In this document: one piece after another, positions 1,656 through 55,036 of the stretch
How the letters are laid out: every line of letters starts with the position of its first letter
How positions within the stretch are numbered: position 1 is the stretch's first letter
Assembly (NCBI GenBank): GCA_001244265.2
Contig: LN717261.1
Location: 1,131,591-1,195,590, forward strand
Direction: 5' to 3'
DNA from: Microbotryum violaceum
Taxonomy: Eukaryota
Length of the DNA stretch: 64,000 nt
The notes under the pieces: model-generated
The model's database searches: none
The model's input: only the letters and a program-made list of their open reading frames with translations
What the model was told of the DNA's origin: nothing
Position numbers and translations under genes: made by a program

Positions 1656-2690
1656 ATGGACACGTCGTCGCCCCTAACGACAGGTGCCCACCCAACAATC
1701 CCCGCCGAACAGCTCGCCGCACTTACGTCGCTGCTGTCGGGTCTCACCACTGCCACATCCGCCACGTCGTCCGGCACCTCTCGCACCGCCTTTCCCAAGC
1801 ACGCACGCTTGGATGGGCCCAAGACGTTTGCGAGCTGGACACGCCAGCTTCGCCTCTGCCTTGCGGACGACATCCGCTCATACGTCCTCGACGGGATCGT
1901 GCCCGCCGACTGGACACCTTCGCACCGCTCTGCCCGCGATGTCGTGGCACGTGAGCTCCTAGCGAATTCGATCGACTCAGCCGACGTCTCGGCAGTCCTT
2001 GACCAAATCCCTACCGCCGACCTCACAGCGCCCAAAATCTATTCGACGCTGAAATCGCGGTATGCTCCGGATGACGCCACTCGCACGCTCGAGCTCTTCT
2101 CACGACTATGGATTTCCGGCCCATGCCCGGCACCGTTGGCGAATTCGACGGTTGGATCATGGAGTTCAAAGCCATTGCGCAAGAAATCATCGATACGAGA
2201 GACGACTATCAATGATGTTCTTGCCACACTCCTCCTCGCCATTGCACACCCGTGCCTCGAGAGCTTCAAGGCGTCATTCCCGACGAACAGCGCACCCAAC
2301 GATCTCTCCCTGCCATTGATTCGCTCGCCGACCGCATGCGTGTTCAACTCCGCGTCCACCAACGTCCCCAGCACCCAATCGGCCCTTCTTGCCTCGTCGT
2401 CGTCACGTCCTACCCGTCCCAAGTGTCTCGCCTGTTGCAGCCCTTTGCACCGTGTGGCGGAGTGCGCCCTGTGAGAGCGAAACACCCGCCGCCAGGACCC
2501 TGTCGCTCCTGCAAGCAGAATCACTGGTCTTTCGACTGCAAAAGGCTCTCGAGAACGGCAAAAAGGCCAACACGGCGAACTCGACGCCAACTCGCAACAC
2601 CATGTCGGATGTCTCGCTACCGGCCTTCTCGCTCATCGTCGCCAGCTTTGCGCCAACTCCTTCGTCATTGACTCAGGCGCCACTTCGCAC
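1656..2690 (+). pseudogene. Family A gag and start of protease, truncated
   Basis: MDTSSPL...[13 protein letters not shown], two zinc-knuckle-like motifs, ends at [10 protein letters not shown] where LTR-B begins. Confidence 0.9.
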
Positions 2691-3089
2691 TATTCGATCA
2701 ACTCTACTACGTCAGCGATGTAGTTATAGCCAAGAGTGATGAATCATTACAACATACCTATTCGATCAACTCTACTACGTCAGCAATGTAGTTATAGCAA
2801 GAGTGATATAGGAAGCTAACAACAAGAGAGCGCCGCGCCTCACATCCTCAGGCTGCGAACCTTGGGGCTGAGCCAATGGCCCAGGCTCGCCCTGCGCGCC
2901 TAAGTCCTGGGGCTGTGTGCGCCTGGCTCGCTCCGCGCGCCTAAGTCCTGAGCCAATGCGCCTGGCTTGTTCTGCGCGCCTAAGTCCTGGGCCGGTGCGC
3001 AGGCGAGCGCGCGCCTAAGTCCTGGGCCGGTGCGCCAGGCTCGCTCTGTGCGCCTAAGTCCTGAGCGAGCGGAGAGTGGATTCCTCACA
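2691..3089 (-). repeat. Solo LTR, family B, with one extra U5 unit and five CCTAAGTCCTG repeats
   Basis: Termini match other B LTRs; flanks are unrelated, no TSD. Confidence 0.9.
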
Positions 3090-3105: not shown

Positions 3106-4557
3106 GCCACCGCTGCCCCCGCACTCCCGGCCGCCCCGCCACGCAGACCAACGCCGCTACCTCAGCCAAAGTCGTGTTTCCCAAACACGCTCGCTTCGAC
3201 GGTCCCAAATCGTTCACCAACTGGTTGCGTCAACTCCGTCTTGCACTCCCGAATCAAGTCCGTGCTTACGTCCTCGAAGGTGTCGTTCCCGCTACTTGGA
3301 CGGCCGATCAGCTTGCCGCCCGGGAACTCATCGTTGGCTCTATTGACTCGCGGACGTCTCGGCCACGCTCGACGCCATTCCCAGTGACGATCTCTCAGCA
3401 CCGCGCATCTTCACCGCTCTCAAGGCTCGCTTTGCACCGGACGATGCTACCCGCACCTCGAGTTGTTCGCCGCCTTTGGGATTTCAGGAAGATGCCTGCC
3501 TCCGTCGAGGCATACAACACCTGGCTGCGCGAGTACATGTCCATCGTACAAGAAATTCGCGACGCCAAAACTTCGCTCAACGATGTACTCGCCACTCACG
3601 TGCTTGCCATGGTCCCATCGTCCTCGACAGCTTCCGACTCACGTTCACGGACGAGCAACGCAACCAACGCGACCTTCCCGAGCTGACAACGCTGACCGAC
3701 CGCATTCGCGTCCAACTTCGTTCGGCGGGACTCTCCACCTCGCACTCGGCCATGCTCGCTACGCCCCCCATGCCCGCCTGCCGCGCCCCGGTCACCGCCT
3801 TCGTGACTGCACCTCACGCGCTCAACACCCCCCCACCGGCCCCTGCCGTCGCTGCCACAAGAAGGGTCATTGGGCCCTCGACTGCAAACCGCGAGGCGAC
3901 CAAAAACGAACCGGCGACGACAACCAGGACAACACACCCTCATCGGTGGCTCAACAACCGAATGTCGGCTATTTCGCCTCCTGCCTGCTCGCTCGCCGCC
4001 ATCTCCGACCGACGCTTCGTCGTCAACTCGGGCGCCACGACACACATGGTCGCCGATCGCTCGCTGTTCACGACTTATCGTCAGACGGCGCACACCAGGG
4101 TCGGCGGTATCGCAGGAGGCATCACGGCCATTGGCATGGGGGACGTGGCGTTCATTACAAGACCGGACACCGATCACGTTGCGTGGCGTTCTTCACACGC
4201 CTGGCCTTCACGTCAACCTTCTCTCTGTCTCTCGCCTCTGCGACACCGACCGCGTTCGACTCGCCTTCACCAGCGACGGGATCGACATTGCAAGGACGGC
4301 CAGGCCATCGCTCACGGGACTCGCGTCAACGACGGTCTCTACCTTTTGGATGCGGACCACACCCAATGTCAGCAGTTGCCTTGCTCTCACGTTCTGAGTC
4401 TCCCGTGCCCCTGCTTACCCTTCACCGCTGCCTCGGCCATCTTGCCCCATCCTCCATACAAAAGATGATTGCTGCAGGTTTGCTGGACGGTTTCGGGGCC
4501 GGGTACAGTGACAAAGACGTAGACGAGTTTGTTTGCAATGCTTGCCTTGGTTCCAAA
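3106..4557 (+). pseudogene. Family B gag-protease-IN N-terminus fragment
   Basis: [46 protein letters not shown]...CNAC. Confidence 0.9.
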
Positions 4558-6560
4558 TGTGATGATGTCACGCCTGCTCAAGCGGTGGTAAGTCTCTGAT
4601 CAAAGGACCAAGGGAGACCAGACCAAGAAGTTGCTTGTTACACACCTGCTCAAGCACTACCGTAAGTTACCACATCTAGAGGGGTGAAAGATAATAGGAA
4701 GAGTAGTGCTCACCTGCTCAAGCGTGGTAAGTCTCTGATCAAAGGACCAAGGGAGACCAGACCAAGAAGTTGCTTGAGCAGAGAGAAACCAGAGAGGGGC
4801 CAGCTGGCTGGGCCTAAGTGCCCAGCCAGAGTCAGGCGCACGGACCTGGCCAGAGTGGGAGAGCTAGAGTGGTGAAAAGTAGGCCAAAAGTGATCAAAAT
4901 GAAGAGAGGAGGATGTTGAGGTAGATGCAAGATACAAGAAGGACATGAAGGAGATATTTGATCTCACACCCCCCCTACTTCGAGTATCAGGGAGCACAGA
5001 TACCGAGTCGACTGCGGTGCCGAGCAAAGAGGTCGCGTGACAATGCTTTGGTGAAGATGTCCGCTGTCATCTCACCAGTGTTGATGTACTGGACGACAAT
5101 ATCGCCCATGGAAACCATATCCCGGACGAAGTGTTCGCGCAGGCGGATGTGCCGAGTCCGAGCATGAAATACCGGATTCTTGGTGAGAGCTTTGGCACCT
5201 TGGTTGTCGCCGTAGATGAGGACGGGCTTTGAAGACGAAAGGCCAAGCTCACCAAAGAGCTGACGCAGAAAGATTGCCTCCTTACCAGCGTGTGACAGTG
5301 CGAGGTACTCGGCGTCACAAGTGGAGTCGGCAACGCGCGATTGGAGCGCGGAGGACCATGAGACGGCAGCACCTGCATAGACAAAAGTGTAACCCATGGT
5401 CGACTTGGAAGAGAGGACGCATGCACCCCAGTTGCAGTCGGAGTAGCCCAAGAGCGGTGCCGGATCCCCACAAGTGTAGCGTAAGCCGTGAGGAAGAGTG
5501 CCAGCGATGTAACGGAAGGCGTGCTTGACAGTCCCCAGGCAGCAGCAGAAGGCGAGTGAGAGAAGCGAGCCAAGTAACCGACGGTGTAAGCCAGGTCGGG
5601 CTGAGTACCAGTGGATGCATACATGAGGGAGCCAATGGCTTGCAGGTACGAGTGCGATCCGGAAAAGGGGTGGGCTGGAGCTCGACTTCAAGGCGGAGAT
5701 CAGACTGCATGGGAGTCGCGACCGGATGGGCGTTGGACATGCCAAATCGAGCAAGGACGTCCTTGAGGTACTGCTCCTGACTCAGGGAGATGGAGCCGTC
5801 TGGAGAACGCCGGATCTGAATGCCGAGGACGTATTCCGCCTCACCAAGCCGTTTGACACCATAGCGCCGCTCAAGCCCTGAAGGGTACGCTCAATCTCGG
5901 GGAGAGAGGGGCTGATCATGAGCAGGTCGTCGACATAGAGCGCAATGTAGTGGCGCACATTGCCCGTTGTCCTGACGTAGACGCAGTGGTCGGATTCGGT
6001 GGCAACATAGCCAAGTGCGGACAAGGCAGAGTCAATCTCGTCGTTCCAGATGCGACCAGCCTGGCGCAAGCCGTAGAGGACCGATGCAGTTGGAGACCTT
6101 GCCTGGCATGTAGATGCCATCAGGTACACGAATGTACAGGGGTGCATCGAGTTTGCCGTGCAGGTAGGCTTTGTCAATGTCGGCCTGGTGGACGTGGTAC
6201 CCATGAGCAGCAGCAAGAGCCAGGAGTGCGCGGATGGAGGTGAATTTGGCCACGGGTGCGAAGGTCTCGTCAAAGTCGATGCCAGAGCGTTGGGAGTCAC
6301 CACGAGCAACGAGACGGCCCTTGTAGGACTTGACTTGGCCATGCTGGTCGCGTTTGGTGCGGAAGACAAAGCGGGAGCCCAGGACCTTGGCGTCTGCTGG
6401 GACAAGGGACTCGTCAATTGGTGTGAACGCCGAAAAATCTTGCAAGAGTGAGTCAAACTCGTCGCGGGCCACAAGACGCCATTCATCCGCTTGAGGGTGG
6501 CCATGGCCGCCCGCCAGTGAGGTGGGTCGCGAGCGGGGGCAATTAGTTCCGCAGGGTCGG
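4558..6560 (-). mobile_element. Family C 3' half: 3' LTR (4558-4968, two intron-like inserts), PPT, RNase H/RT
   Basis: G-run PPT at 4969-4975; YSDCNW and ALYVDD motifs; homologous to 19236-21130. Confidence 0.92.
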
Positions 6561-8813
<2,253 letters not shown>

Positions 8814-9872
8814 TGTAAGAGTTACAACTCTTTGTATTTCCTTCTCACACTGTCTCACCCTTTCTCTGCCTTATTCTTTCTGTGATTTTTGGCCTTTCCC
8901 TTCACCCTGCTCTCCCATCTCTGGGCTGGGTCTGTGCACCTGCATCAAGCGCACGGACCAAGCCATGCTCTGCCTGGCTCCCTCTATCTTCAGGCGGGTC
9001 CGTGCGCTTAACACTGGGGCACGGACCTGGTTGCGCACTACCCAGCCAACTGGCTCCGCGCTTCTCTCTCTCCTGCTCAAGCAACTTCATTGGTCTGGTC
9101 TCCTTGGTCCGTTGATCAGAGACTCACCACCGCTTGAGCAGGTGTGTGCAAAGCAACTTCATTGGTCTGGTCTCCTTGGTCCGTGTTATCAGAGACTCAC
9201 CACCGCTTGAGCAGTTGTGCGCATCATAGGTTATAAGCCCCAACAAGCTACCAGCGCGGTCACCTCCGTCCCGCCCTCGTCATTTTTTTTTTCGCGCTTC
9301 GCACGGCTCAGCCCCTCCCACACTTCGCACGCCCGGCATGTCTGACTCCGACGTCCCCAAGCCCACAACGCTCACATTCCCCCACCGCGCCCGCCTACAC
9401 AAATTACAGCCTTTGCTGCTTCGGACCTTCTGCGCGACGCAGATGGCTACAGGACTGGGTTCTTACCCTATGCTCCGCATGCCATCGACGTAATCGATAT
9501 ATCTAAAGTCCGGCGTCCCTCCTACGTCCTGGCCAACCGCTTATGTACCTTTGTGGGACCATTACGCTCGAGCCTCGATCTGCGCTGCCGTCGACCCCCG
9601 TCTGGTCCTCCCGGTCTCTCCCAGTACTTTGGCGACACTCACAGCGGTCACAAGATTTGGGCAGCTCTGCGCACGCGATACGGCGCTGTCTCGGCTGTCG
9701 ACCTTCTTCCCGTCATCTCTCGACTCTTCAGTCCCGACCTTATGCCGATCCGCGCGACGCATTCCTTCAGTTCCGCGACCGTTTCGAGAACGACTCCCGA
9801 CTTCTAAAACGACTCCGACGTGACAACCGACTCCCTCCTAGCGTCGCACTTACTTGCTCGGATGCCTCCCTC
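8814..9872 (+). mobile_element. Family E (C-related) 5' end: LTR 8814-9228 (TG...TA), PBS 9229-9240, degenerate gag from about 9338
   Basis: U5 shares the AAGCAACTTC...CGCTTGAGCAG unit with LTR-C; PBS GGTTATAAGCCC; gag WDHYARASICAAVD is similar to C gag. Confidence 0.85.
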
Positions 9873-15414
<5,542 letters not shown>

Positions 15415-15812
15415 TTTATTGTGCCCGCCGACACACCCACCGCCGTCAAGACGAGGACCCCACTAGTAAGGTCGGCGCACATGGACGTCTCATCCTCCCT
15501 TGATGATTCTGTCATGAGCGCCGTTGACGTGGCCCCAGGGTACACTGGCAGATCCTTACTTAATTCTACAGATACTAGTCCCTCGCCGTCGCCGTCACTT
15601 GCCCCGCTCTCGTCGCCCACCACGTCCTCGACCGGGGACCGTCCCCCGACAACTCGGATGACCCGCTCGACCTCTTCAGCTCCAACACCGCGGTCCGTCT
15701 CAACCTGATGGACGTGCATCGGTCCGACGACGATACACTGGACGGCCAGGCACCAGCCGTTGACCCTGTTGACCCGCCCTCTGATGACGACTCTCCTGAT
15801 GAGATTGATTTC
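15415..15812 (+). pseudogene. Family B IN-RT linker fragment with the conserved 106-nt block (15466-15571)
   Basis: [16 protein letters not shown]...DSPDEIDF. Confidence 0.88.
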
Positions 15813-16041
15813 TGTGAGGAATCCACTCTCTGCTCGGCTCAGGACTTAGGCGCGCGGATCGAGCCAGGCGCACCGGCCCAGGGCTTAGGCGCGCGGAGGG
15901 AGCTGGGCGCATTGGCTCAGGACTTAGACGCGCGGAGCGAGCCTGGGAAACTTGGGGGCGCGAGGCTCTCACACTGTTAGCTTCCTATTCATCACTCTTG
16001 GCTAGAACTACATCGCTGATGTAGTAGAGTTGATCGAATAG

Positions 16042-16110
16042 GTATGTTGTAATGCATTCATCACTCTTGGCTAGAACTACATCGCTGACGTAGTAGAGTT
16101 GATCGAATAG
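16042..16110 (+). other. Putative 69-nt spliceosomal intron duplicating the LTR-B terminus
   Basis: AG|GTATGT...GCTGAC...GAATAG|GTTAT; removal regenerates the single-unit LTR-PBS junction seen at 34625. Confidence 0.65.
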
Positions 16111-18696
16111 GTTATAAGCCCAACGAGCTACCAGCCCGCCGCTCGCTCGCATTTTTCCTCGAGCCCAGCCACTCGAGCCGCCCACGTCCATCGCACCATC
16201 GCACAATGGATAGTCGCGACCCCACCACGCCTTCGTCCCCCAGGGACCCCAGCCCTCTTGCGTCTTCGATCAGCGATCAACTCGCTACCCTGCAGGCCCA
16301 GCTCGCCGCTCTGCAGGCCTCGCAGCCCCCTGCCGCCCCCGCCTCTGCCGCCGCTGCCTCGCAGCCCACTGCCGCCGCCGCCGCCGCCACCACCGCTTCA
16401 AAAGTCGTCTTTCCCAAGCACGCTCGCCTAGACGGCTCCAAGTCGTTCACGAACTGGTTACGCCAGCTCCGGCTCACGCTTCCGAATCAGATTCGTGGTT
16501 ACGTCCTTGATGGAGTTGTTCCCCCGACATGGACGGCCGACCAGCTGGCCGCTCATGACGACGCCGCGCGGGAAATTATCGTTGGCTCGATCGACTCCGC
16601 CGACGTCTCAGCAACCCTCGATGCCATCCCAAGCGACGACCTGTTGGCGCCACGCATCTTCGCCGCACTCAAGGCTCGTTTCGCACCGAACGACGCCACT
16701 CGCACCCTCGAATTATTCGCCCGCCTTTGGGACTTTCGGAAGATGCCCGCCTCGGTCGAGGCCTATGACACCTGGCTGTGCGAATACATGGCCATTGCTC
16801 AAGAGATTCGCGACGCTAAGACGTCGCTGAACGACGTCCTCGCCACCCACATCCTCGCCATGGTACCGCCCTGCCTAGACAGCTTCCGGCTAATGTTCAC
16901 GGACGAGCAGCGCGCCCAGCGCGAACTCCCGGAGCTCACGACCTTAACGGACCGTATCCGCGTTCAGCTCCGATCCGCCGGCCTCTCGGCTTTGCATTCG
17001 GCCATGCTCGCCGACGCCCCCTCTTGCCCCGCCTGCCGCGCCCCGGCCACCACCTGCGCGACTGCACTTCACGTGCAAAGCATCCGCCCACCGGCCCCTG
17101 CCGCCGCTGCCAAAAGCGAGGTCACTGGGCCCTCGACTGCAAGAACCGGGGCCAACAGACACGTACCAGCGACGACACCCAGGACGACTTGTCTTCCGCC
17201 ACGGCTCACCAACCGAACGTCGGATATTTTGCCTCCTGCCTCTTTGCCCGCCGCCAACTCCCGACCGATGCCTTCGTAGTCGACTCGGGCGCAACGACTC
17301 ACATGGTCGCCGACCGCTCCCTGTTCACAACTTATCGTCCGACGGCACATACCAAGATTGGCGGCATTTCCGGCGGTATCACGGCCATTGGTATGGGGGA
17401 TGTACCGTTTGTTGCCAACACCGGACACCCAATCACGTTGCGCGGCGTTCTGCACGCGCCGGGCCTTCACGTCAACCTTCTCTCCGTCTCTCGCCTTTGT
17501 GACACCGACCGCATTCGGCTTGCCTTCACCAGCGACAGCATTGACATCACCAAGGACGGCCAGGCCATCGCTCACGGTACACGGGTTAACGACGGTCTCT
17601 ACCTCCTGGACGCGGATCACACCAAATGTCAGCAGCTTGCCTTCCTCTCACGCTCTGAGTCTACCGTGCCCCTACTTACCCTCCACCGCTGCCTCGGCCA
17701 CCTTGCTCCATCCTCTATACAGAAGATGATCGCTGCGGGTTTGCTGGACGGTTTTGGGGCCGGGTACAGTGACAAAGACGTAGAGGAGTTTGCTTGCAAT
17801 GCTTGCCTTGGTTCCAAAGGCCATCGTCTTCCTTTTCCCGACTCGGAGTCACATTCCCCGAGAGACTTGGTCTCGTGCACAGCGATGTCCTGTCGTTTCC
17901 CACTCCGTCCTTGACCGGGAAACGCTATCTTGTCACCTTCCTTGACGACCACTCTCGCAAACTATGGGCATACGCAATCGATCACAAAAGCGACGTCTTC
18001 CCGACCTTCCAGACTTGGCTCGCCGAAGTGGAGTTAGAAACGGACGCGCGTCTACGGATCCTTCGCACCGACAACGGCGGCAAATACCGATCCAACGCGT
18101 TCACGGAGTTCTGCCAGTCCAGGGGCATTCGTCGCCAATACTCTATTCCATACAGGCCTCAGCAAAACGGTCGTGCCAAACGTGTCAACCTCTTTATCGT
18201 CGAGGGCGTCCTCGCCCTCCTTGCTGACTCCCACCTGCCGGCCACCTTTTGGGACGAAGCGGCTGCATATTTCGTTTATTGCAAAAACAGGTGCTCACAC
18301 TCAGCTTTGGCCAAACAGACTCCACAATTCGTTTGGAACGGCCAACGCACCATGACCACCGCCCTTCACCCGTTCGGCTGCGCGGCCTGGCTCATGGTCG
18401 CGCCGGACCTTTGCAGCAAGCTCGACCCCAAGGCCGCGTGCGTGATTTTTACTGGTTACGACCTCGCCTCCAAGGCTTTCCGGTTCTTCAACCATTCCAC
18501 CAACAAGGTTGTGCTTGGCCGAAATGCCACCTTCCTCGACGACGACTTCCCCGGCCTACCAGTCAACACGCCCGTCGATGCGGATGACGCCGAACGCCAG
18601 TTCGTCATTCCCGCCGACGCGCCAGCGCCTGACACCGCTGACACGCACGCCCCCGCCGCCACACCCGCCCCCGCCGTCAAGACGAGGACCCCACTA

Positions 18697-18802
18697 GTAA
18701 GGTCGGCGCACATGGACGTCTCATCCCCTCTTGATGATTCTGCCATGAGCGCCGTTGACGTGGCCCCAGGGTACACTGGCGGATCCTTACTTAATTCTAC
18801 AG
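18697..18802 (+). other. Putative 106-nt retained intron in the IN-RT linker
   Basis: GTAAGG...TACTTAATTCTACAG; almost invariant across A and B copies while the flanks diverge. Confidence 0.6.
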
Positions 18803-19548
18803 ATACCAGCCCCTCGTCGTCTCCGTTGCTCGCCCCGATTTCGTCTCCCGCCATGTCCTCAGGGCGGGGACCATCCTTCGAGGACTCGGATGATCCGCTT
18901 GACCTTCTGCACTCCGACACCGCGGTTCGCCTCCGCCTGATGGACGTACATCGATCCGACAACGACACCCTGGTCACACCCACACTCGCCGTTGGCCCCG
19001 GGCAGCCCTCCGACGACGACTCCCCTGATGAGATCGATTTCCTCTCTCGTCATCACCGCGCCTTCATCGCCACCGACGACGACGACCCTACCCTCGAAGC
19101 CATTGAGCCGGTCAAATCGATCACTAGCGACCCTCAGACCTGGCGTGAAGCGATGTCCAGCGACGAGCACGACCTCTGGGCTCAAGCTGCCTCCGACGAG
19201 TTCACCGCCATGCGCAACGATTTCAAGGTGTTCACTGTGATGTTGTCACGCCTGCTCAAGCGGTGGTAAGTCTCTGATCGAAGGACCAAGGGAGACCAGA
19301 CCAAGAAGTTGCTTGAGCAGGAGAGAAACCAGAGTGGGGCCATTTGGCTGGGCCCAAGTCAGCCCAGCCAAAGTCAGGCGCACGGACCTGGCCCAGGTGC
19401 AGAGACCAGGCCCAGAGTGGGAGAGCTAAGGTGGTGAAAAGTAGGCCAAAAGTGATCAAAACGAAGAGAGGAGGATGTTGAGGTAGGTACAAGATACAAG
19501 AAGGACATGAAGGAGATATTTGATCTCACACCCCCCCTACTTTGAGTA

Positions 19549-22500
19549 TCAGGGAGCACAGATACCGAGTCGACCGCGGTGCCAAGCAAAGAGGTCGCGT
19601 GACAATGCTTTGGTGAAGATGTCCGCTGTCATCTCACCAGTGTTGATGTACTGGACGACAATGTCGCCCATGGAAACCATATCCCGGACGAAGTGTTCGC
19701 GCAGGCGGATGTGCCGAGTCCGAGCATGAAATACCGGATTCTTGGTGAGAGCATTGGCGCCTTGGTTGTTGCCGTAGATGAGGACGGGCTTTGAAGACGA
19801 AAGGCCAAGCTCACCAAAGAGCTGACACAGAAAGATTGCCTCCTTACCAGCGTGTGACAGTGCGAGGTACTCGGCGTCACAAGTGGAGTCAGCAACGCGC
19901 GATTGAAGCCGGGAGGACCATGAGACGGCAGCACCTGCATAGACGAAAGTGTAACCCATGGTCGACTTGGAAGAGAGGACGCATGCACCCCAGTTGCAGT
20001 CGGAGTAGCCCAAGAGCGGTGCCGGATTCCCACGAGCGTAGCGTAAGCCGTGAGAAAGAGTGCCAGCGAGGTAACGGAAGGCGTGTTTGACAGCTCCCCA
20101 AGCAGCAGCGGAAGGCGAGTGAGAGAAGCGAGCCAAGTAACCGACGGTGTAAGCCAGGTCGGGCCGAGTACCAGTGGACGCGTACATAAGGGAACCAATG
20201 GCCTGCAGGTACCGAGTGCGATCCGGGAATGGGGTGGGCTGCAGCTCGACTTCGAGGCGGAGATCGGGCTGCATGGGCATGGCGACGGGATGGGCATCGG
20301 ACATTCCAAATCGGGCAAGGACGTCCTTGAGGTATTGTTCCTGACTCAGAGAGATGGAACCGTCTGGAGAGCGCCGGATCTGGATGCCGAGGACGTATTC
20401 TGCCTCACCGAGCCGTTTGACACCATAGCGCTGCTCAAGACCCTGAAGGGTACGCTCAATCTCAGGGAGAGAGGGGCTGATCATGAGCAGGTCGTCGACA
20501 TAGAGCGCAATGTAGTGGTGCACATCACCCGTTTTCCTGACGTAGACGCAGTGGTCGGATTCGGTGGCGACGTAGCCGAGTGCGCACAAGGCAGAGTCAA
20601 TCTCGTCGTTCCAGAGGCGACCGGCCTGGCGCAAACCATAGAGGGACCGATGCAGTTGGAGGACCTTGCCTGGCATGTAGATGCCATCAGGCACACGAAT
20701 GTACAGGGGTGCGTCGAGTCTGCCGTGCAGGTAGGCTTTGTCAATGTCGGCCTGGTGGACGTGGTACCCATGAGCAGCAGCAAGAGCCAGGAGTGCGCGG
20801 ATGGAGGTGAATTTGGCCACGGGTGCAAAGGTCTCGTCAAAGTCAATGCCAGAGCGTTGGGAGTCACCACGAGCAACGAGACGGCCCTTGTAGGACTTGA
20901 CTTGGCCATGCTGGTCGCGTTTGGTGCGGAAGACAAAGCGGGAGCCCAGGACCTTGGCGTCTGCTGGGACAAGGGACTTGTCAATTGGTGTGAACGCCGA
21001 AAAATCTCGCAAGAGTGAGTCAAACTCGTCGCGGGCCGCAAGACGCCATTCATCCGCTTGAGGAGTGGCCATGGCCGCTCGCCAGTGAGGTGGGTCGCGA
21101 GCGGGGGCAATCAGTTCCGCAGGGTCGGCGGGCGAGGTCTCAATGAGGGCGGCAGCGCCAGAGGCAAGGTAGGCCACGGCAGAGGGTGAGTGGAGTGCGT
21201 CATCCACGTCGTCGGGAAACTCCTGCGCCTGGCATAGCGAAGCAACATCGCGTGGGCGTGGCAGGAGATCGATCGGGTCCGGGGAGTCGGACCGAGCGGG
21301 TGAGGGTGGCGCTGGCAACGCACGGGAGGCCACGGGGCGCGGGGAAGGACAAGGCGTGGAGATGGCCGAGTCAGAGCTACCTTGGTCAGAGGCGCTTGAT
21401 GCAGGTGATTCCGGGTCAGGGAGCTCACGAGCAGGGGAGCCTTGGTCAGGGACAGGGGGTGCGAGCGAGTCCTGGTCAGGGACCTCGCGGGCAGGGGCGG
21501 GACGGTGCAAGCCCTGGTCAGGGCTGCCGGCACGGGTCAAGGTGGCTCAGTGCGAGGCGCGAGTGAGCGAGGGGAAGCAACGAGCGAAGGCTCAAGGGGG
21601 TCTACCTGGTCAGGGTATGCGTCAACAGTTACGGGGAGTGGGATTGGTTCAGCGCGAACGTCGGTGGCTGGCCGGAGTGCAGGGAACTCGGATTCACGGA
21701 AGACAACATTGCGGCTGAGTTGTATCCTGCGCGTGGACGGCTCGAAGAGTCGGAAAGCCTTGGCATGGTGGTCAAAACCAACAAACAGGAGGGGTACAGG
21801 CTTGGGGTCGAGGTCCGTGCGCTTGGCCGAGGGAAGGTGGTGCCAAGCGCGGCAGCCAAAGGCGCGAAGGGTGGAGATGTCAGGCGCAAAGCCATGCCAA
21901 CGAGTGTCGGGGATCTCACCACCAATGCCGGCGTGAGGCATCAGGTTTTTGCAGTGCACGTAGTACAAGGCAGCCTCACCCCAGAGGCGTGAATCAGCGC
22001 CAGAGGAGTAGAGCAGAGCAAGGATGCCCTCCTTGATGGTGCGATTGCTGCGCTCGACACGCCCATTTTGTTGGGGTGTGTAAGGGATGGTGAGTTCCCG
22101 ACGAATGCCTTTACTTGTACAGAAGTCGACAAAGTTGCGCAGAGTGAACTTGCCTCCATTGTCAGAGCGGATGGTCTTCACCTTGTTGCCGGTGGCATTC
22201 TCGACTTCAAGGATCCAGTCGCGAAGGCGAGGGAAGACATCACTTTTGAGTGCCAGGAGGAGACACCAGTGCTTGCGAGAGAAGTCATCAATGATGACCA
22301 GCATGTACCGATGTCCACCAAATGTAGGGCGAGGCATTTGCGCTACATCGACGTGGAGGAGATCCAGACGGCCAGAGGCGATGGACTTGGACCGGGCGAA
22401 GGGGAGGGCATGCGCTTTGGAAGCGAGACAAGCATTGCAGTAAAAATCCCGGAGCTCCTGATCCTTATACACCCAATCCACCCCAGTAACCAAGCCTCTC

Positions 22501-23863
22501 TGCACAATGTTTCTGATTTGCGCAACGGGCAAGTGCGCAAGGCGACGGTGCAGAGTCAGCAAGGACACTTTGGTAGGGATGGCGAGGAGGGCTTTGGGCG
22601 TACAGGGTGTAGGTCCAAGTGCCAAGGCGTACAGGTTGTTCCCGATGGCTTGAGCGGTAGCGACGACGGCACCCGAGGGACGGGCGATGCTTGCACAACG
22701 AGATGCGAAGGAGACGCGGTAGCCAAGTTGATCCAACTGGAAGACGGACAGCAGGTTGCATGGGAGATCCGGTACCAGGAGGACATTGGACACGGTGATG
22801 GGACCCGTTGAAGTCTGGATGCAAATGGTGCCGCAGCCGGTGGAAGGGAGGGAGCCGGCGACGCCTCCAACTCGCGGGCCTGCGACCGTGCGAAGCTCGG
22901 AAAAAAGGCCCCTGTCGTTCGTCATATGGCGATTAGCGCCCGAGTCAAGAAGCCAAGCCGATTTGCGAAATGGCGAAGGTGTTGCGAGGAGACAGGCCAT
23001 GAACGACACAGAGTTGGGTGTGTCCACTGCGGCTGGTGACGCGACTGGCTGGGAGGCCTTCTTCTCGGCGGTGCGACGAGCTCGGTAGGCGGCGGCCCAG
23101 GCGGGTGTCGGGGCATTCCCGAGCCAGTGCAACTTGCGACAAGACGGATTTGGGCACGGCCTTGAACAGCCGTGGCGGGCCTGCGGCGTGGCGACGGCGG
23201 CAACAGGAGTATCGACGGGGCGGGCTTTGACATCGCGGTAAAGGCGCGTGAAGATCTCGGTGGCGGAGGGCATCGCAGTGGAATCGCCCTGGTCAGCAAC
23301 AAAGGTGGTGCGCCAGGCGTCGAAGGACGAAGGAAGGCAAGCAAGCAAGTGCGAGGCAAGAAGGGCGTTCACGGTGACCTGCGAGTCCTGCAGCAGCCGG
23401 GCGTCGTTTTCGAAACTGTCGCGGAATTGCAGGAACAGGTCGGGAGTGACGGGCACAGGGTCAGAGCTGAAGAGGCGTTGGATGACCGGTAGCAGATCGA
23501 CAGCAGAGACGGTGCCGTAGCGTTCGCGAAGTGCCTGCCAGACCTTGGGTGCTGCGAGCGATTCGTCGAGGTAAGGTGACAGGCCCGGGAGGACAGTTTG
23601 CGAATCGACGGAGGCGCAAATGGAGGAGCAGGCGTAGTGGTCCCAGAGAGGGACATACGAAGCAGGCCAAGACTCGAGTGGTACGCCCGTGTTGAGGTAA
23701 CGGACGACGCCGGAGGGCAGGCGTGAACGGATGGCGAGGACCCAGTCTCGGTAGCCGGACGAGTTGCGAAGGCCGCAGAGTGGGTGGGCGGGCGCAAGGG
23801 CGGCGCATCGGGCGTGGGCTCGCGGAGCTTGGCTTCAGGCGTGGAGGCGCCGGCGTCGGACAT
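19549..23863 (-). pseudogene. Family C Gag-Pol polyprotein with a few frameshifts
   Basis: WLLDSGANRHM (PR), LHRRLAH...CNAC and RSDNGG (IN), ALYVDD (RT), YSDCNW (RNase H). Confidence 0.92.
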
Positions 23864-23956
23864 GTTGCGAAGGGTGAAAAAGTAGAGCGAAGGGCGGGCA
23901 CGGAGGTGGCCGCACTGGTAGCTTGGTTGGGCTAATAACCTGTGATGTTGTCACGC

Positions 23957-24166
23957 CTGCTCAAGCGGTGGTAAGTCTCTGATCGAAGGACCAAGGGAGA
24001 CCAGACCAAGAAGTTGCTTGTTACACACCTGCTCAAGCGTGGTAAGTCTCTGATCGAAGGACCAAGGGGGACCAGACCAAGAAGTTGCTTTTTACACACC
24101 TGCTCAAGCACTACAGTAAGTTACCACATCTAGAGGGTGAAAGATGATAGGAAGAGTAGTGCTCAC
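23957..24166 (-). repeat. Three back-to-back intron-like units (67, 71, 72 nt) in LTR-C U5
   Basis: CAG|GTGAGC...CAG|GTGTGT...CAG|GTGTGT...CAG; 210 nt equals the length difference between the two LTRs (505 vs 295). Confidence 0.8.
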
Positions 24167-25661
24167 CTGCTCAAGCGGTGGTAAGTCTCTGATCGAAGGA
24201 CCAAGGGAGACCAGACCAAGAAGTTGCTTGAGCAGGAGAGAAACCAGAGTGGGGCCATTTGGCTGGGCCCAAGTCAGCCCAGCCAAAGTCAGGCGCACGG
24301 ACCTGGCCCAGGTGCAGAGACCAGGCCCAGAGTGGGAGAGCTAAGGTGGTGAAAAGTAGGCCAAAAGTGATCAAAACGAAGAGAGGAGGATGTTGAGGTA
24401 GGTACAAGATACAAGAAGGACATGAAGGAGATATTTGATCTCACAGTTTCCCGGTCAAGGACGGAGTGGGAAATGACAGGACATCGCTGTGCACGAGACC
24501 AAGTCTCTCGGGGGAATGTGACTCCGAGTCGGGAAAAGGAAGACGATGGCCTTTGGAACCAAGGCAAGCATTGCAAACAAACTCTTCTACGTCTTTGTCA
24601 CTGTACCCGGCCCAAACCCGTCCAGCAAACCCGCAGCGATCATCTTCTGTATAGAGGATGGAGCAAGGTGGCCGAGGCAGCGGTGGAGGGTAAGTAGGGG
24701 CACGGTAGACTCAGAGCGTGAGAGGAAGGCAAGCTGCTGACATTTGGTGTGGTCCGCGTCCAGGAGGTAGAGACCGTCGTTAACCCGTGTACCGTGAGCG
24801 ATGGCCTGGCCGTCCTTGGTGATGTCGATGCCATCGCTGGTGAAGGCAAGCCGAACGCGGTCGTGTCACAAAGGCGAGAGACGGAGAGAAGGTTGACGTG
24901 AAGGCCCGGCGCATGCAGAACGCCGCGCAACGTGATTGGGTGTCCGGTGTTGGCAACAAACGGTACATCCCCCATGCCAATGGCCGTGATACCGCCGGCA
25001 ATGCCGCCAATCTTGGTGTGTGCCGTTGGACGATAAGTTGTGAACAGGGAGCGGTCGGCGACCATGTGAGTCGTGGTGCCCGAGTCGACGACGAAGGTGT
25101 CGGTCGGAGATGGTGGCGAGCGAGTAGGCAGGAGGCGAAATAGCCGACATTCGGTTGTTGAGCCGCCGATGAGGGTGTGTTGTCCTGGTTGTCGTCGCCG
25201 GTTCGTTTTTGGTCGCCTCGCGGTTTGCAGTCAAGGGCCCAGTGACCCTTCTTGTGGCAGCGACGGCAGGGGCCGGTGGGGGGGTGTTGAGCGCGTGAGG
25301 TGCAGTCACGAAGGCGGTGACCGGGGGCGCGGCAGGCGGGGCATAGGGATGTGAAGAGTCCACTCTCAGCTCGACAGAGGCGCCTCGATTGTCGCGCGCA
25401 CCCGCTAGCCCGCCCCCTTGCGGTGGAGACTTAGGTGCGCGCGACTGCCTCAGCAAGCAGGCGCCAGCGGACTCGGCGCGCGCCCGCTAGGCCGCCCCTT
25501 GAGGTGGCGACTTAGACGCGCACAGCTGCCTCGGCTCCCCAGCAAGTTCACCCGCGGCTGGGCCTATCCAGTGCGGGCCCCCTTTCTGTTTCTTAGCTTC
25601 CCTCTCACCACTTCTGTTCAACAATCAACCTCTCCTGACAGTAGTGGTGATTGTCTCATAG

Positions 25662-25868
25662 GTATGCTGAAATAGACCACTTCTGTTCAACAATCAACCT
25701 CTCCTGACAGTAGTGGTGATTGTCTCATAGGTATGCTGAAATAGACCACTTCTGTTCAACAATCAACCTCTCCTGACAGTAGTGGTGATTGTCTCATAGG
25801 TATGCTGAAATAGACCACTTCTGCTCAACAATCAACCTCTCCTGACAGTAGTGGTGATTGTCTCATAG
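25662..25868 (+). repeat. Three tandem 69-nt intron-like units at the LTR-A/PBS junction
   Basis: Each reads GTATGCTGAAATAG...CCTGAC...CTCATAG (25662-25730, 25731-25799, 25800-25868). Confidence 0.85.
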
Positions 25869-25896
25869 GTTATTCGCCCATCGACCTACTGCTGGC

Positions 25897-30399
<4,503 letters not shown>

Positions 30400-31822
30400 T
30401 GTGAAGAGTCCACTCTCAGCTCGACAGAGGCGCCTCGATCGTCGCGCGCACCCGCTAGCCCGCCCCCTTGCGGTGGGTACTTAGGCGCGCGCGACTGCCT
30501 CAGCAAGCAGGCGCCAGCGGACTCGGGCGCGCGCCTGCTAGGCCGCCCCTTGAGGTGGCAACTTAGACGCGCGCAGCTGCCTCGGCTCCCCAGCAAGTTC
30601 AACCGCGGCTGGGCCTATCCCAGTGCGGGCCCCCTTTCTGTTTCTTAGCTTCCCTCTCACCACTTCTGTTCAACAATCAACCTCTCCTGACAGTAGTGGT
30701 GATTGTCTCATAAGGGAGGCGGTAGCGAGCATGGCCGAGTGCGAGGTGGAGAGTCCCGCCGAGCGAAGTTGGACGCGAATGCGGTCGTCAGCGTCGTCAG
30801 CTCGGGAAGGTCGCGTTGGTGGCGTTGCTCGTCCGTGAACGTGAGTCGGAAGCTGTTGAGGCACAATGGGACCATGGCAAGCACGTGAGTGGCGAGTACG
30901 TCGTTGAGCAAAGTTTTGGCGTCGCGAATTTCTTGTACGATGGACATGTACTCGCGCAGCCAGTTGTCGTATGCCTCGACGGAGGCAGGCATCTTCCTGA
31001 AATCCCAAAGGCGGCGAACAACTCGAGGGTGCGGGTAGCATCGTCCGGTGCAAAACGAGCCTTGAGAGCGGTGAAGATGCGCGTGCTGAGAGATCGTCAC
31101 TGGGAATGGCGTCGAGCGTGGCCGAGACGTCCGCGGAGTCGATAGAGCCAACGATGAGTTCCCGGGCGGCGTTGTCACGGCGGCAAGCTGATCGGCCGTC
31201 CAAGTAGCAGGAACGATACCTTCGAGGACGTAAGCACGGACTTGATTCGGGAGCGCAAGACGGAGTTGACGCAACCAGTTGGTGAACAATTTGGGACCGT
31301 CGAGGCGAGCGTGTTTGGGAAACACGACTTTGGCTGAGGTAGCGGCGTTGGTCTGCGTGGCGGGGGCGGCCGGAAGTGGGGGCAGCGGTGGCGGAGACTG
31401 CAAGGCCTGCAGGGCAGCGAGCTGTGCCTGTAGAGTTGCAATTTGTGCGGCGATCGAGGATTCAGGGGGGCTGGGAGAATCCTTGGGGGGCGAGGGCGGT
31501 GCGGGAGCGGGAGAGTCGCCCATGGTGCAAAGGGATGTGTGCGGTCGAGTGGCTAAGCTCGAGGAAAAAACGCAAGGCGGCGAGGCTGGTAGCTCGTGGG
31601 CGGATAACCTATTTGATCAACTCTACTACGTCAGCGATGTAGTTCTAGCCAAGAGTGATGAATAGGAAGCTAACAACAAGAGAGCCACGCGCCTCAAGTC
31701 AGTGTGAGAGCCGCGCGCCCCAAGTTTCCCAGGCTCGCTCTGTGCGCCTAGCCCTGGGCCGATGCGCCTGGCTCGCTCCGCGCGCCTAAGTCCTGAGCCG
31801 AGCGGAGAGTGGATTCCTCACA

Positions 31823-32068
31823 CCACCGGCCCCTGCCGTCGCTGCCACAAGAAGGGTCACTGGGCCCTCGACTGCAAACCGCGAGGCGACCAAAAACGAA
31901 CCGGCGACGACAACCAGGACAACACACCCTCATCGGCGGCTCAACAACCAAATGTCGGCTATTTCGCCTCCTGCCTGCTTGCTCGCCGCCATCTCCCGAC
32001 CGACGCCTTCGTCGTCGACTCGGGCGCCACGACTCACATGGTCGCCAACCGCTCCCTGTTCACGACTT
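31823..32068 (+). pseudogene. Family B gag/PR fragment
   Basis: [14 protein letters not shown]...[11 protein letters not shown]. Confidence 0.88.
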
Positions 32069-34295: not shown

Positions 34296-35203
34296 TGTGA
34301 GGAATCCACTCTCCGCTCGGCTCAGGACTTAGGCGCGCAGAGCGAGCCTGGCGCACCGGCCCAGGACTTAGCGCGCGCTCGCTTGGCGCACCGGCCCAGG
34401 ACTTAGGCGCGCGGACAAGCCAGGCGCATTGGCTCAGGACTTAGGCGCGCGGAGCGAGCCAGGGCACACAGCCCCAGGACTTAGGCGCGCAGGGCAGCCT
34501 GGCCATTGGCTCAGCCCCAAGGTTCGCAGCCTGAGGACGTGAGGCGCGCGGCTCTCTTGTTGTAGCTTCCTATTCATCACTCTTGGCTATAACTACATCG
34601 CTGACGTAGTAGAGTTGATCGAATAGGTTATCAGCCCACGAGCTACCAGCCTCGCGCCTTGCGTTTTTCCTGAGCTTAGCCACTCGACCGCACACATCCC
34701 TTTGCACCATGGGCGACTCTCCGCTCCCGCACCGCCCTCGCCCCCAAGGATTCTCCCAGCCCCCTGAATCCTCGATCGCCGCACAATTGCAACTCTACAG
34801 GCACAGCTCGCTGCCCTCCAGGCCTCGCAGTCTCCCGCCACCGCTGCCCCCGCACTCCGCCGCGCCCGCCACGCAGACCAATGCCGCTACCTCAGCCAAA
34901 GTCGTGTTTCCCAAACACGCTCGCCTCAACGGTCCAAATCGTTCACCAACTGTTGCGTCAACTCCGTCTTGCGCTCCCGAATCAAGTCCGTGCTTATGTC
35001 CTCGAAGGTGTTGTTCCCCCTACTTGGACGCCGATCAGCTTGCCGCCCGTGACGACGCCGCCCGGGAACTCATCGTTGGCTCTATCAACTCCGCGACGTC
35101 TCGCGCCACGCTCGACGCCATTCCCAGTGACGATCTCTCAGCACCGCGCATCTTCACCGCTCTCAAGGCTCGCTTTGCACTGGACGATGCTACCCGCACC
35201 CTC
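34296..35203 (+). mobile_element. Family B 5' end (LTR 34296-34625, PBS GGTTATCAGCCC, gag from 34709)
   Basis: Reverse-complement match to 53506-54287. Confidence 0.9.
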
Positions 35204-37321
35204 TATTCGATCAACTCTACTACGTCAGCGATGTAGTTATAGCCAAGAGTGATGAATCCATTACAACATACCTATTCGATCAACTCTACTACGTCAGCAA
35301 TGTAGTTATAGCCAAGAGTGATGAATAGGAAGCTAACAACAAGAGAGCCGCGCGCCTCAAGTCAGTGTGAGAGCCGCGCGCCCCCAAGTTTCCCAGGCTC
35401 GCTCTGCGCCGCCTAGCCCTGGGCCGATGCGCCTGGCTCGCTCCGCGCGCCTAAGTCCTGAGCCGAGCGGAGAGTGGATTTCTCACACCCCCCCCCCCAC
35501 GCGAACGCAAGGTAGACTTGAGCCGTGGTGACGCGTCCGGAGGCCTAGAGCATAGCAATGTACACCAAAAATCTTGGGACCTAGCGCCTTGGTGAATATG
35601 TCCGCAACCATGTTCGCTGTGCCGACGTGTGAGAGGGAGATATCGCCTTGGTGGACCATGTCGCGCGACAAAGTGCTTGCGGAGGCGTATGTGTCGGGTG
35701 CCAGAGGTGTGAACGGGGTCGTGAGCGACGGCGGCCGCGCGCCTTGTTGTCCGTGAAAATGTGAGCCGCATCGACCGGGCAAACGTGGAGCTCGGAGAGG
35801 AGTTGTGTAAGGTAAATCGCTTCCTTACCAGCATGCGACAAGGTGAGGTATTCGGCATCAGTGGTGGAATCTGCTACCCGAGTCTGACGCTTTGATGACA
35901 AGAACGGCGGAGCGCGGCAAGTAAAAGACGAAGCCCATTGTGGAGATTGACGTGTCAACGCAGGCACCCCAGTTTGCATCGGAATAGCCAACCACCCCTG
36001 TAATCTTGGTTGGACCGCAGGCGTAGAGTAGCTCATCACGGTATCTAGCGCGAGAGTAGCGAAGGACGTGTTTGACGGCGACCCAATGGCGGCGGCGGGG
36101 TTGTTGGCGAACCGGGACAGGTACGAGACGGCGAAGGCAATGTCGGGGCAAGTGCCGAGTGAAATGTATAGGAGGGAGCCGATGGCTTGCAGGTACCACG
36201 ACCAAATGCGTTCCGTTCCCTGACCCGGTACTGCCGTGAGCGAGAGGCCAGGCGTCATTGGCACCGTAGCGCCGCGCGTTGTGGTGTCGAAGTGAAAGCG
36301 GCGCGAGCACGTCCATGATGTAGCGCTCCTGAGATAAAGCAATGGAGCCGTCTTCCAGGCGTCGAATCTGGATGCCGAGGATGTATTCTGCAGGGCCGAG
36401 TCGTTTGACGCCGTATCGCTGTTCGAGGCCGGAGATGACACGCTCAATCTCGTTGAGGGCGGGCTGACAATGAGGGGATCGTCGACATATAATGCGATAT
36501 AATGGGGCCGCTTCTGATCATCAATGCGAGAGTAAATGCAGTGATCAGTGCCCGTTGCCGTGTACCCAAGACTCCTGAGCAATGTGTCAATGTGGCGATT
36601 CCAGATGCGACCGGCCTGCTTAAGACCGTAGATCGAGCGCCGCAGCCGAGAACCTGGTCGCTCAGGAAGTCGAAACCTCGTGGCGTTGTCATCCAGATGT
36701 CGTGATCGAGCTCGCCGTGAAGGTAAGCCTTGTCGATGTCAGCCTGATGAACGTGATAGCCGTTGGCAGCAGCAAGGGCGAGGAGGCAGCAAATGGAGGA
36801 GAAACGGGCGACAGGTGCGAACGTCTCCGAGAAGTCAATGCCGTCGCGCTGGCGGTTACCCTGCGCGACAAGGCGTGCCTTCGCCCTGTGATATCACCCT
36901 GTGCATTGCGCTTGGTCTTCCAGACGAATTTGGAGGTGACGATGGTGGCGCCCAGTGGTACCGAGGAACGAGGCTCGATGGTGAGCACCTTGAAATCGTT
37001 GCGCATGGCGGTGAACTCGTCGGAGGCGGCGTGAGCCCAGAGGTCGTGCTCGTCGCTGGACATCGCTTCACGCCAGGTCTGAGGGTCGCTAGTGATCGAT
37101 TTGACCGGCTCAATGGCTTCGAGGGTGGGGTCGTCGTCGTCGGTGGCGATGAAGGCGCGGTGATGACGAGAGAGGAAATCGATCTCATCAGGGGAGTCGT
37201 CGTTGGAGGGCTGCCCGGGGCCAACGGCGCGTGTGGGTGTGACCAGGGTGTCGTCGTCGGATCGATGTACATCCATCAGGCGGAGGCGAACCGCGGTGTC
37301 GGAGTGCAGAAGGTTAAGCGA
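35204..37321 (-). mobile_element. Family B 3' half (LTR 35204-35487 with extra unit, RNase H, RT, linker)
   Basis: PPT C-run on + from 35488; [14 protein letters not shown]. Confidence 0.9.
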
Positions 37322-37728: not shown

Positions 37729-48661
<10,933 letters not shown>

Positions 48662-48816: not shown

Positions 48817-53505
<4,689 letters not shown>

Positions 53506-54287
53506 GTCCGCGGAGTCGATAGAGCCAACGATGAGTTCCCGGGCGGCGTCGTCACGGGCGGCAAGCTGATCGGCCGTCCAAGTAGCGGGAACGACACCTT
53601 TGAGGACATAAGCACGGACTTGATTCGGGAGCGCAAGACGGAGTTGACGCAACCAGTTGGTGAACGATTTGGGACCGTTGAGGCGAGCGTGTTTGGGAAA
53701 CACGACTTTGGCTGAGGTAGCGGTGTTGGTCTGCGTGGCGGGGGCGGCCGGGAGTGCGGGGGCAGCGGTGGCGGGAGAGTGCAAGGCCTGCAGGGCAGCG
53801 AGCTGTGCCTGTAGAGTTGCAATTTGTGCGGCGATCGAGGATTCAGGGGGGCTGGGAGAATCCTTGGGGGCGAGGGCGGTGCGGGAGCGGGAGAGTCGCC
53901 CATGGTGCAAAGGGATGTGTGCGGTCGAGTGGCTAAGCTCGAGGAAAAACGCAAGGCGGCGAGGCTGGTAGCTCGTGGGCTGATAACCTATTCGATCAAC
54001 TCTACTACGTCAGCGATGTAGTTATAGCCAAGAGTGATGAATAGGAAGCTAACAACAAGAGAGCCGCGCGCCTCAAGTCCTCAGGCTGCAAACCTTGGGG
54101 CTGAGCCAATGGCCCAGGCTCGCCCTGCGCGCCTAAGTCCTGGGGCTGTGTGCGCCTGGCTCGCTCCGCGCGCCTAAGTCCTGAGCCAATGCGCCTGGCT
54201 TGTTCGCGCACCTAAGTCCTGGGCCGGTGCGCCAGGCTCGCTCCGCGCGCCTAAGTCCTGAGCCGAGCGGAGAGTGGATTCCTCACA

Positions 54288-54487
54288 GCATTGGCTCAGG
54301 ACTTAGGCGCGCAGAGCGAGCCTGGGAAACTTGGGGGCGCGCGGCTCTCACACTGTTAGCTTCCTATTCATCACTCTTGGCTAGAACTACATCGCTGACG
54401 TAGTAGAGTTGATCGAATAGGTATGTTGTAATGATTCATCACTCTTGGCTAGAACTACATCGCTGACCTAGTAGAGTTGATCGAATA
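54288..54487 (+). repeat. 3' part of an LTR-B with an extra U5 unit
   Basis: Matches 15909-16109; ends GATCGAATA. Confidence 0.88.
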
Positions 54488-55036
54488 GGCCTTTCGTCTT
54501 CAAAGCCTGTCCTCATCTACGGCGACAACCAAGGTGCCAATGCTCTCACCAAGAATCCGGTGTTTCATGCTCGGACTCGGCACATCCGCCTGCGCGAACA
54601 CTTTGTCCGGGATATGGTTTCCATGGGCGATATTGTCGTGCAGTACATCAACACTGGTGAGATGACAGCGGACATCTTCACCAAAGCATTGTCACGCGAC
54701 CTCTTTGCTCGGCACCGCGGTCGACTCGGTATCTGTGCTCCCTGATACTCGAAGTAGGGGGGTGTGAGATCAAATATCTCCTTCATGTCCTTCTTGTATC
54801 TTGCATCTACCTCAACATCCTCCTCTCTTCATTTTGATCACTTTTGGCCTACTTTTCACCACTCTAGCTCTCCCACTCTGGGCCAGGTCCGTGCACCTGA
54901 CTCTGGCTGGGCACTTAGGCCCAGCCAGCTGGCCCCTCTCTGGTTTCTCTCCTGCTCAAGCAACTTCTTGGTCTGGTCTCCCTTGGTCCTTCGATCAGAG
55001 ACTTACCACCGCTTGAGCAGGCGTGACAACTTCACA
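54488..55036 (+). mobile_element. Family C 3' end (RNase H tail, PPT, short LTR 54763-55036)
   Basis: [13 protein letters not shown]...GICAP*, G-run, TGTGAGATC...TCACA. Confidence 0.92.

Follow-up and report, generated by a model that had tools for sequence, protein, structure and literature searches.

Repeated LTR-end units with intron-like borders in Ty1/copia retrotransposons of Microbotryum

Ty1/copia elements and the repeated end of their LTRs

We analysed a stretch of 64,000 nucleotides from the anther-smut fungus Microbotryum violaceum (assembly GCA_001244265.2, contig LN717261.1, positions 1,131,591 to 1,195,590; hereafter the window, numbered from its first letter) and found it to be a nest of Ty1/copia retrotransposons, some of whose long terminal repeats (LTRs) end in extra copies of a short repeated unit. 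Pfam domains RVT_2, rve, gag_pre-integrs, Pol_BBD and SH3_retrovirus were present in 12 of the 14 open reading frames (ORFs) scanned. The combination of RVT_2, an integrase upstream of the reverse transcriptase (RT), and gag-pre-integrase and protease-type domains is that of Ty1/copia, as is the layout of an LTR pair with a primer-binding site (PBS) after the 5' LTR and a polypurine tract before the 3' LTR. The closest proteins, at 90-98% identity, are copia-like sequences from Microbotryum saponariae, M. silenes-dioicae and M. intermedium. LTR pairs reach 99% identity by self-BLAST and start with TGTGAG, directly preceded by a G-run polypurine tract; such a tract also lies ahead of the 3' LTR in a sister copy of the element that begins at 15813. 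Because the base following ...ATA (families A and B) or ...CACA (family C) varies among LTRs that adjoin flanking sequence, we place the LTR ends at these motifs. For M. lychnidis-dioicae, the passages of the genome description cited here give a genome of 26.1 Mb with 55.4% GC and 5.6 exons per gene, list core RNA interference (RNAi) genes, and name copia-like elements as the commonest class of transposable element (PMC4469406).

At family-B LTR ends the unit of 68-69 nt consists of a 57-nt direct repeat of the LTR end and a 12-nt spacer. In a repeat search, the 57-nt repeat recurred at a spacing of 69 nt with its two copies 98-100% identical, and it extended 2 nt past the terminal AG, so that the LTR-end copy takes in the first nucleotides of the PBS. 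Since the direct repeat is 57 nt long at a spacing of 69, the spacer is the only part specific to the unit. All 11 matches of the spacer motif AGGTATGYTGWAAT in the window sit at family A or B LTR ends. The sequence-only reading of this DNA had noted that the A and B units share little beyond GTATG, CTGAC, GTAGT, TAG and their length. The LTR ends of A and B are identical at just 44 of 75 positions, and the spacers of family A and of B at 43438/48316 at 10 of 12 (13 of 15 counting the GTA). The unit lies inside the LTR, as it also terminates LTRs that abut unrelated flank: this is the case for four of the six B units and for one of three unit-bearing LTRs in each of families A and C. The repeat and the LTR end are not in phase in family C, where the units end in ...GCTTGAGCAG and a 14-16-nt tail separates them from the PBS.

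The unit is thus a tandem, heritable copy of the terminal portion of the LTR, on the R/U5 side, in Microbotryum Ty1/copia elements. Its copies are arranged head to tail in a reverse-transcribed part of the element, vary in number and resemble each other more within an array than between families. Its place within the LTR, ahead of the PBS, means that both LTRs receive a copy at each retrotransposition.

Other origins of the unit were considered. An introner-like or otherwise mobile intron family was rejected, since all 11 spacer-motif matches lie at LTR ends and none is dispersed in unrelated genes. A tRNA-derived unit was rejected because ARAGORN returned no tRNA gene in the window, and a known RNA family within the LTR because Rfam gave no match at E<=1 in 15700-26100. 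Comparison of the spacer with the sequence upstream of the first repeat copy revealed no similarity (p = 0.29 to 1.0), so no origin was found there. The spacer end together with the repeat start resembles the first ~25 nt of the LTR of its own family, with p = 0.006 for A, 0.0135 for B and 0.34 for C; these values come from a post hoc scoring against shuffles, in which the LTR starts at 15813, 25346 and 24445 (-) were compared with the unit starts.

Distribution, turnover and priming site of the units

In the window we counted 29 LTR ends (12 in family A, 10 in B and 7 in C), of which 12 carry one to three extra units, giving 17 units in total (Table 1). Units are present at 6 of the 12 PBS-adjacent and 6 of the 17 flank-adjacent ends. 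The 21-nt LTR-end motif GTAGTAGAGTTGATCGAATAG has 16 matches with <=3 mismatches, compared to none in 100 shuffles, and these correspond to the 10 family-B LTR ends plus six second copies. Family B has six units and family A five, all of 69 nt and three of them in tandem, while family C has four units of 71-73 nt as well as a variant unit, V, of 67-68 nt in two LTRs. A-type LTR ends reading TTATA instead of TCATA, here called A2, carry no unit in any of their five occurrences in the window. The sequence-only reading had quoted a B sequence that we recovered at 16042-16110 (+) and 48316-48384 (-), and it had correctly assigned one extra unit to each of the B LTRs at 2690, 15813, 35203, 43438, 48316 and 54288 and none to those at 7603, 31609, 34296 and 53988. 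The length of 69 nt that it gave for family B applies to four of the six units, the other two (2690-2757 and 54421-54488) measuring 68 nt.

Table 1. Coordinates of repeat units and associated features in the window
Feature	Position	Strand	Remarks
Family-B 5' LTR, TGTGAGGAAT...GATCGAATA+G	15813..16110	+	One extra unit included; self-BLAST, sequence
First copy of 57-nt repeat (original LTR end)	15987..16043	+	Two copies, 98% identical, spacing 69
Family-B unit, 69 nt	16042..16110	+	GTATGTTGTAATGCA + LTR-end duplicate, TAG end
12-nt spacer ATGTTGTAATGC	16044..16055	+	Unique to unit
PBS GGTTATAAGCCCAACGAGCTACCAG of B copy	16110..16134	+	Complementary to D arm + anticodon arm of initiator-type tRNA
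ORF at gag position of B copy	16206..17279	+	Pfam: no match; integrase further on in element
B unit, 5' LTR	48316..48384	-	Then PBS; two copies 100% identical
B unit, end of 3' LTR	43438..43506	-	Then unrelated flank; LTR 99% identical to 48316 LTR
B unit at LTR end	35203..35271	-	Then flank
B unit, 68 nt, at LTR end	2690..2757	-	Then flank
B unit, 68 nt, at LTR end	54421..54488	+	Then flank
Three tandem A units, 69 nt each, 5' LTR	25662..25868	+	Then PBS GGTTATTCGCCC; TRF: period 69, 3.8 copies, 99% matches
A unit in 5' LTR	14184..14252	-	
A unit at LTR end	9872..9940	-	Then flank
C 5' LTR, three extra units (V 67 nt, 71 and 72 nt)	23957..24166	-	Inserted 16 nt ahead of LTR end
C 3' LTR, two extra units (V 68 nt + 72 nt)	4574..4713	-	Then tail, then flank
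C (subfamily 2) extra unit, 73 nt, 5' LTR	9142..9214	+	

An assembly artefact, in which a repeat had been collapsed or expanded, would be a general risk in any repeat-rich region. We regard it as very improbable here, because 12 independent LTR ends, which differ in flank and have private variants of their own, show the same structure, and a contig from an independent run, X20, contains a variant with the spacer. The loose end of that contig, at 35203-35235 (-), points to another strain or species with a shorter unit variant, in which the spacer is GTATGTTGAAATGCA, the LTR-end copy that follows it is without most of its 5' half, and the upstream end differs (...GGGTAAATAG).

Variant V, at 24100-24166 (-) and 4646-4713 (-), reads GTGAGCACTACTCTTCCTAT...GTAGTGCTTGAGCAG. 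Its interior bears no relation to that of the C unit, and one part of V is similar to the family-B leader (CTTCCTATTCATC); V may have been captured from another family by template switching.

Our analysis bears out the earlier proposal that the duplicate is under concerted evolution. The two copies within a B LTR share the variants of their subfamily, GGCTAGAAC versus GGCTATAAC and ACATCGC versus ACACCGC, and the copies within single A LTRs share private variants, namely AATCGACC at 14184/14253 and ACATTCAACC at 9872/9941. Such sharing within an LTR, set against the low identity of the A and B LTR ends, supports concerted evolution. Every B subfamily includes both unit-bearing and unit-less LTRs and the spacer is homologous throughout, which argues for repeated, precise loss of units. 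In family A we observed zero, one and three extra units. Unit number agrees within two LTR pairs, with one unit in each LTR of 48316/43438 and of 14184/9872, the former being the youngest pair (99% identical). The copy number (0, 1, 2 or 3) and the near-identity of copies are most simply generated by RT switching between the repeated copies during synthesis and transfer of minus-strand strong-stop DNA, a process that would both set the number of units and homogenise them. Once all extra units were gone, the spacer could presumably not be regenerated in this way, yet unit-bearing lineages persist in diverged families.

The PBS pattern GGTTATNNGCCC...AGCTACCAG occurs at 13 sites in the window compared to 0.1 expected, further examples being 25868-25879, 23929-23940 (-) and 53206-53217 (-). 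When the pattern was compared with metagenome contigs, 118 of 119 loci among the matches listed (at least 119 loci) were tRNA-fMet-like genes and one (L023) was odd, indicating complementarity of the PBS to the D and anticodon arms of an initiator-type tRNA; the listed matches included no related element. The two N positions of the pattern, which face tRNA positions 34 and 33, differ by family and read GA, AA, TC, TA, CA or CC. One of the five A2 LTR ends adjoins an exact initiator-methionine-type PBS, GGTTATGAGCCC, and the PBS GGTTATAAGCCC plus its downstream leader is diagnostic of a unit-bearing subfamily. Half-tRNA priming at the anticodon-loop region is likewise a feature of Pucciniomycotina LTR elements (Kojima 2024, PMC10886601); the subject of that paper is tRNA-like sequences within LTRs (Helenus), and the passages cited here report none in Microbotryum and describe no U5 repeat.

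Intron likeness of the unit and alternative explanations

All 17 unit junctions read AG|GT and the units measure 67-73 nt, as would suit a U2-type intron with GT..AG borders. Judged against the general fungal consensus (GTRNGT for the 5' site and CTRAY for the branch point, not trained on the host), the A, B and V units fit. CTGAC lies 21 nt from the unit end in B and 22 nt in A, matching the distance given by the sequence-only reading. Variant V, despite its unrelated interior, retains GTGAGC...GTAACTTAC...CAG and the same length class. Both subfamilies of C have GTGTGT at their internal junctions, compared to GCGTGA (6 of 6) or TTGTGC (one) in the paralogous terminal tails. The conserved spacer also speaks for splicing, as does the survival of units in diverged families when their loss would be irreversible.

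These features led us to propose, at a probability of roughly 0.4, that each extra unit is a facultative, self-restoring short spliceosomal intron of the 5' leader. The predicted 5' site would be AG|GTATGY in A and B and CAG|GTGTGT or CAG|GTGAGC in C, the predicted branch point of the A and B units would be the CTGAC, and the 3' site would be TAG or CAG. Removal of a unit would recreate exactly the LTR-end/PBS junction of a unit-less element, so that spliced and unspliced RNA should both be competent for replication. Unit-less copies would then descend from spliced RNA. More tentatively, the sequence is compatible with a fuller scheme, in which an intron made from a copy of the LTR end passes to new copies by way of unspliced RNA, is lost through spliced RNA, re-expanded by slippage during strand transfer, and retained within the LTR because it boosts expression or helps the RNA to escape surveillance; an intron-rich, RNAi-competent fungus would provide the setting for such an escape.

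Several observations weigh against the intron proposal. The intron likeness is less independent as evidence than it appears. In A and B, the AG|GT joins the final A of the LTR to the GGT that opens the PBS, copied along with the duplicate, and the GGTATG at the start of the spacer equals the GGTTATG at the start of the PBS with one T removed. As parts of the LTR end, CTGAC, GTAGT and TAG are kept equally in unit-less LTRs, including the five A2 ends. The sequence-only reading had taken these signals as a sign of selection on splicing, which they do not demonstrate; most of them derive from the PBS or the LTR end. The equal unit length in A and B follows from the homology of their LTR ends and spacers. 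Standard C units are without a CTRAY motif and have CTTAC or CTCAC instead, and AGs between the putative branch point and the 3' site (GTAG, TAG and GAG in B) could compete with the latter. Unit gain, as in the three units of family A, is impossible by splicing; template switching is needed for it, and by itself would explain precise loss as well. The position of the spacer within the transcript of the 5' LTR is putative, as inheritance into both LTRs would suit a place in U3 as well as one in U5/R.

The A element at 25346-30713 (+) is a further difficulty. Three extra units stand in its 5' LTR against none in the 3' LTR, the two LTRs being 96.5% identical, and it represents a single insertion, as contigs of X16 and X17 join 25345 to 30714 with four shared letters. 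The two LTRs of one element may therefore differ by whole units. Such inequality is predicted by neither the intron nor the template-switching model, and normal reverse transcription does not predict it.

We also compared contigs of four runs with positions 15500-35400. X16 is a DNA run, while X17, X19 and X20 were only guessed to be RNA; X17 looks DNA-like, because it has the joint 25345->30714 in common with X16 and is without the 95-nt joint described below. Among the listed pieces of the contigs of these four runs, the DNA run included, there was no joint of 67-73 nt at the units, even though unit-less LTRs exist as DNA, and coverage of LTR ends was thin in X19 and X20; this negative carries no weight for or against splicing. 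A loose end at 24166 in X19 was considered as a splice into downstream sequence and rejected, as its letters are absent from the window.

A functional role that requires no splicing seems somewhat less probable. Here the GU-rich spacer (GGUAUGUUGWAAUG, with GUGUGU in C) plus the extra LTR-end copy would serve the LTR as a cis element at the RNA or DNA level, for example as an efficiency or downstream element for 3'-end formation that is otherwise missing from a very short U5, or in the initiation of reverse transcription or packaging next to the PBS, while template switching would set the copy number and homogenise the copies. GU-rich and UAUGU-like motifs are typical of polyadenylation elements. 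Such a role is consistent with the location of the unit in the LTR, including 3' and solo LTRs (6 of 17 flank-adjacent ends), and with spacer conservation between A and the B spacer at 43438/48316 beyond the six bases that a 5' splice site needs; the argument from persistence holds for it equally. The unit-less B LTR end with its PBS gives a better fold than its shuffles do (z = -2.5; 4 of 200 as good), whereas the B unit alone does not (z = +0.32); for the A unit, single-sequence folding gave z = -1.39. The idea that a conserved U5 hairpin had set the repeat borders was dropped, the A/B consensus reaching -0.99 kcal/mol with nine pairs, none of them showing compensatory changes, which also counts against an unspliced RNA element. 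In addition, premature termination would be a risk where such an element stood in the 5' LTR, the loss of GT from the terminal tails of family C is left unexplained, and the poly(A) site and transcription start that this role presupposes are putative.

Less probable again is that the unit is a neutral by-product, duplicated at the U5/PBS boundary by one event in the common ancestor of A and B and by a separate one in C, expanding and contracting by template switching or DNA slippage and resembling an intron by coincidence. Tandem repeats of variable copy number are common in LTRs, and the window also contains 26-39-nt repeats in U3. LTR end and PBS together explain the AG|GT, the 17 of 29 LTR ends without units show that units are dispensable for the presence of copies, and the three units against none at 25346-30713 suggest changes at the DNA level. 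Against neutrality, three diverged families and the youngest LTR pair still have units even though loss is irreversible, conservation is higher in the spacer than around it (13/15 versus 44/75; binomial p about 0.02), and GT is found at 17 of 17 junctions but not in the terminal tails of family C.

Separately from the units, 95 nt inside pol (17628..17722 (+), joint 17627->17723) are skipped in the contigs of X19 and X20; those of X16 and X17 show no such joint. The skipped stretch has GT..AG ends, with borders and motifs GTCAGC...CTTAC/CTGAC...CAG, and copies of both A and B conserve it. When it is removed from the copy at 46719-46813 (-), a stop codon arises precisely at the junction, between the protease motif and the integrase. 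Further homologous stretches lie at 24570-24809 (-), 4300-4539 (+) and 27192-27426 (+), among others. As a GT..AG joint present in two probable RNA runs only, it suggests that these copia elements are spliced by the host spliceosome, which bears on the plausibility of the intron proposal, with a DNA deletion variant in the X19/X20 organism as the alternative given the guessed run type. Removal of the 95 nt probably makes a subgenomic gag-protease mRNA, a kind of transcript known from Drosophila copia.

Other features of the window were also recorded. The U3 part of B LTRs contains 26-39-nt tandem repeats (GGACTTAGGCGCGCGGAGCGAGCC-like) whose copy number differs between copies, for example at 15835-15947, 34318-34514, 48509-48639 and 54101-54264. 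Family D, at 48817-53509 (-), is a seemingly intact copia element with a 1326-aa ORF carrying gag, protease-type, integrase and RT domains, LTRs that are 98.6% identical with canonical TG..CA ends, the PBS GGTTATGAGTCC, and a GC content below that of its surroundings; no U5 repeat unit was found in it. Differences between the window and the contigs of the four runs (15500-35400) were mostly transitions, with A>G 62, T>C 62, C>T 31 and G>A 24 for X16 and each transversion seen 2-9 times. This excess would fit the hypermutation resembling repeat-induced point mutation that has been described for Microbotryum.

Significance and comparison with known systems

A full-text literature search returned no description of an intron or a U5 repeat in Microbotryum copia LTRs, and intron lengths are absent from the main text of PMC4469406. 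Should the unit prove to be spliced, it would be the first intron within an LTR, upstream of the PBS, as far as the literature was searched, and a natural system in which the retention of an intron, its loss via reverse-transcribed spliced RNA and its gain by duplication could be read from the copies of one transposon family. If it is not spliced, it would be a rapidly turning-over yet persistently retained U5 repeat adjoining a half-tRNA PBS, and would help to understand how strands are transferred and 3' ends formed where R-U5 is very short. In both cases the unit bears on the annotation of LTR boundaries and the dating of insertions in Microbotryum, since the LTRs of a single element can be unequal in unit number.

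Introns can be created by tandem duplication of an AGGT-containing segment, with the 5' site in one copy and the 3' site in the next, so that splicing restores the original sequence. The geometry of the copia unit equals that of this model. The copia unit differs from it in lying at a non-coding LTR end, in its added and conserved 12-nt spacer, in its zero to three copies and in its spread by retrotransposition, and its splicing is a prediction. In retroviruses, direct repeats are deleted and duplicated by template switching of RT, which would account for precise loss, occasional gain and homogenisation of the units, but not for the origin or conservation of the spacer. Drosophila copia has variable short repeats in its 5' LTR and untranslated leader, with effects on expression. 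The likeness lies in a repeat number that varies at the LTR/leader boundary; the Drosophila repeats are short enhancer-like motifs downstream of the LTR, not 69-nt copies of an LTR end with GT..AG borders.

For the 95-nt joint inside pol, the Arabidopsis Ty1/Copia element EVD offers a parallel, as the passages cited here describe a subgenomic GAG mRNA produced via the host spliceosome, which the stop codon at the junction fits (PMC5580714). The EVD intron lies in the coding region around the protease domain, unlike the LTR unit.

For the unit itself, the 5' intron of Penelope from Drosophila virilis is the closest demonstrated case. Penelope is not an LTR element, its intron is no duplicate of neighbouring sequence and adjoins no PBS, and its splicing has been demonstrated, whereas that of the copia unit is a prediction. 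According to the passages cited here, this short intron of 75 bp, 46 bp downstream of the transcription start, is kept through transposition, spliced and unspliced RNAs both occur, and a reporter from which the intron has been deleted is hardly expressed although its RNA is not lost (PMC2377424).

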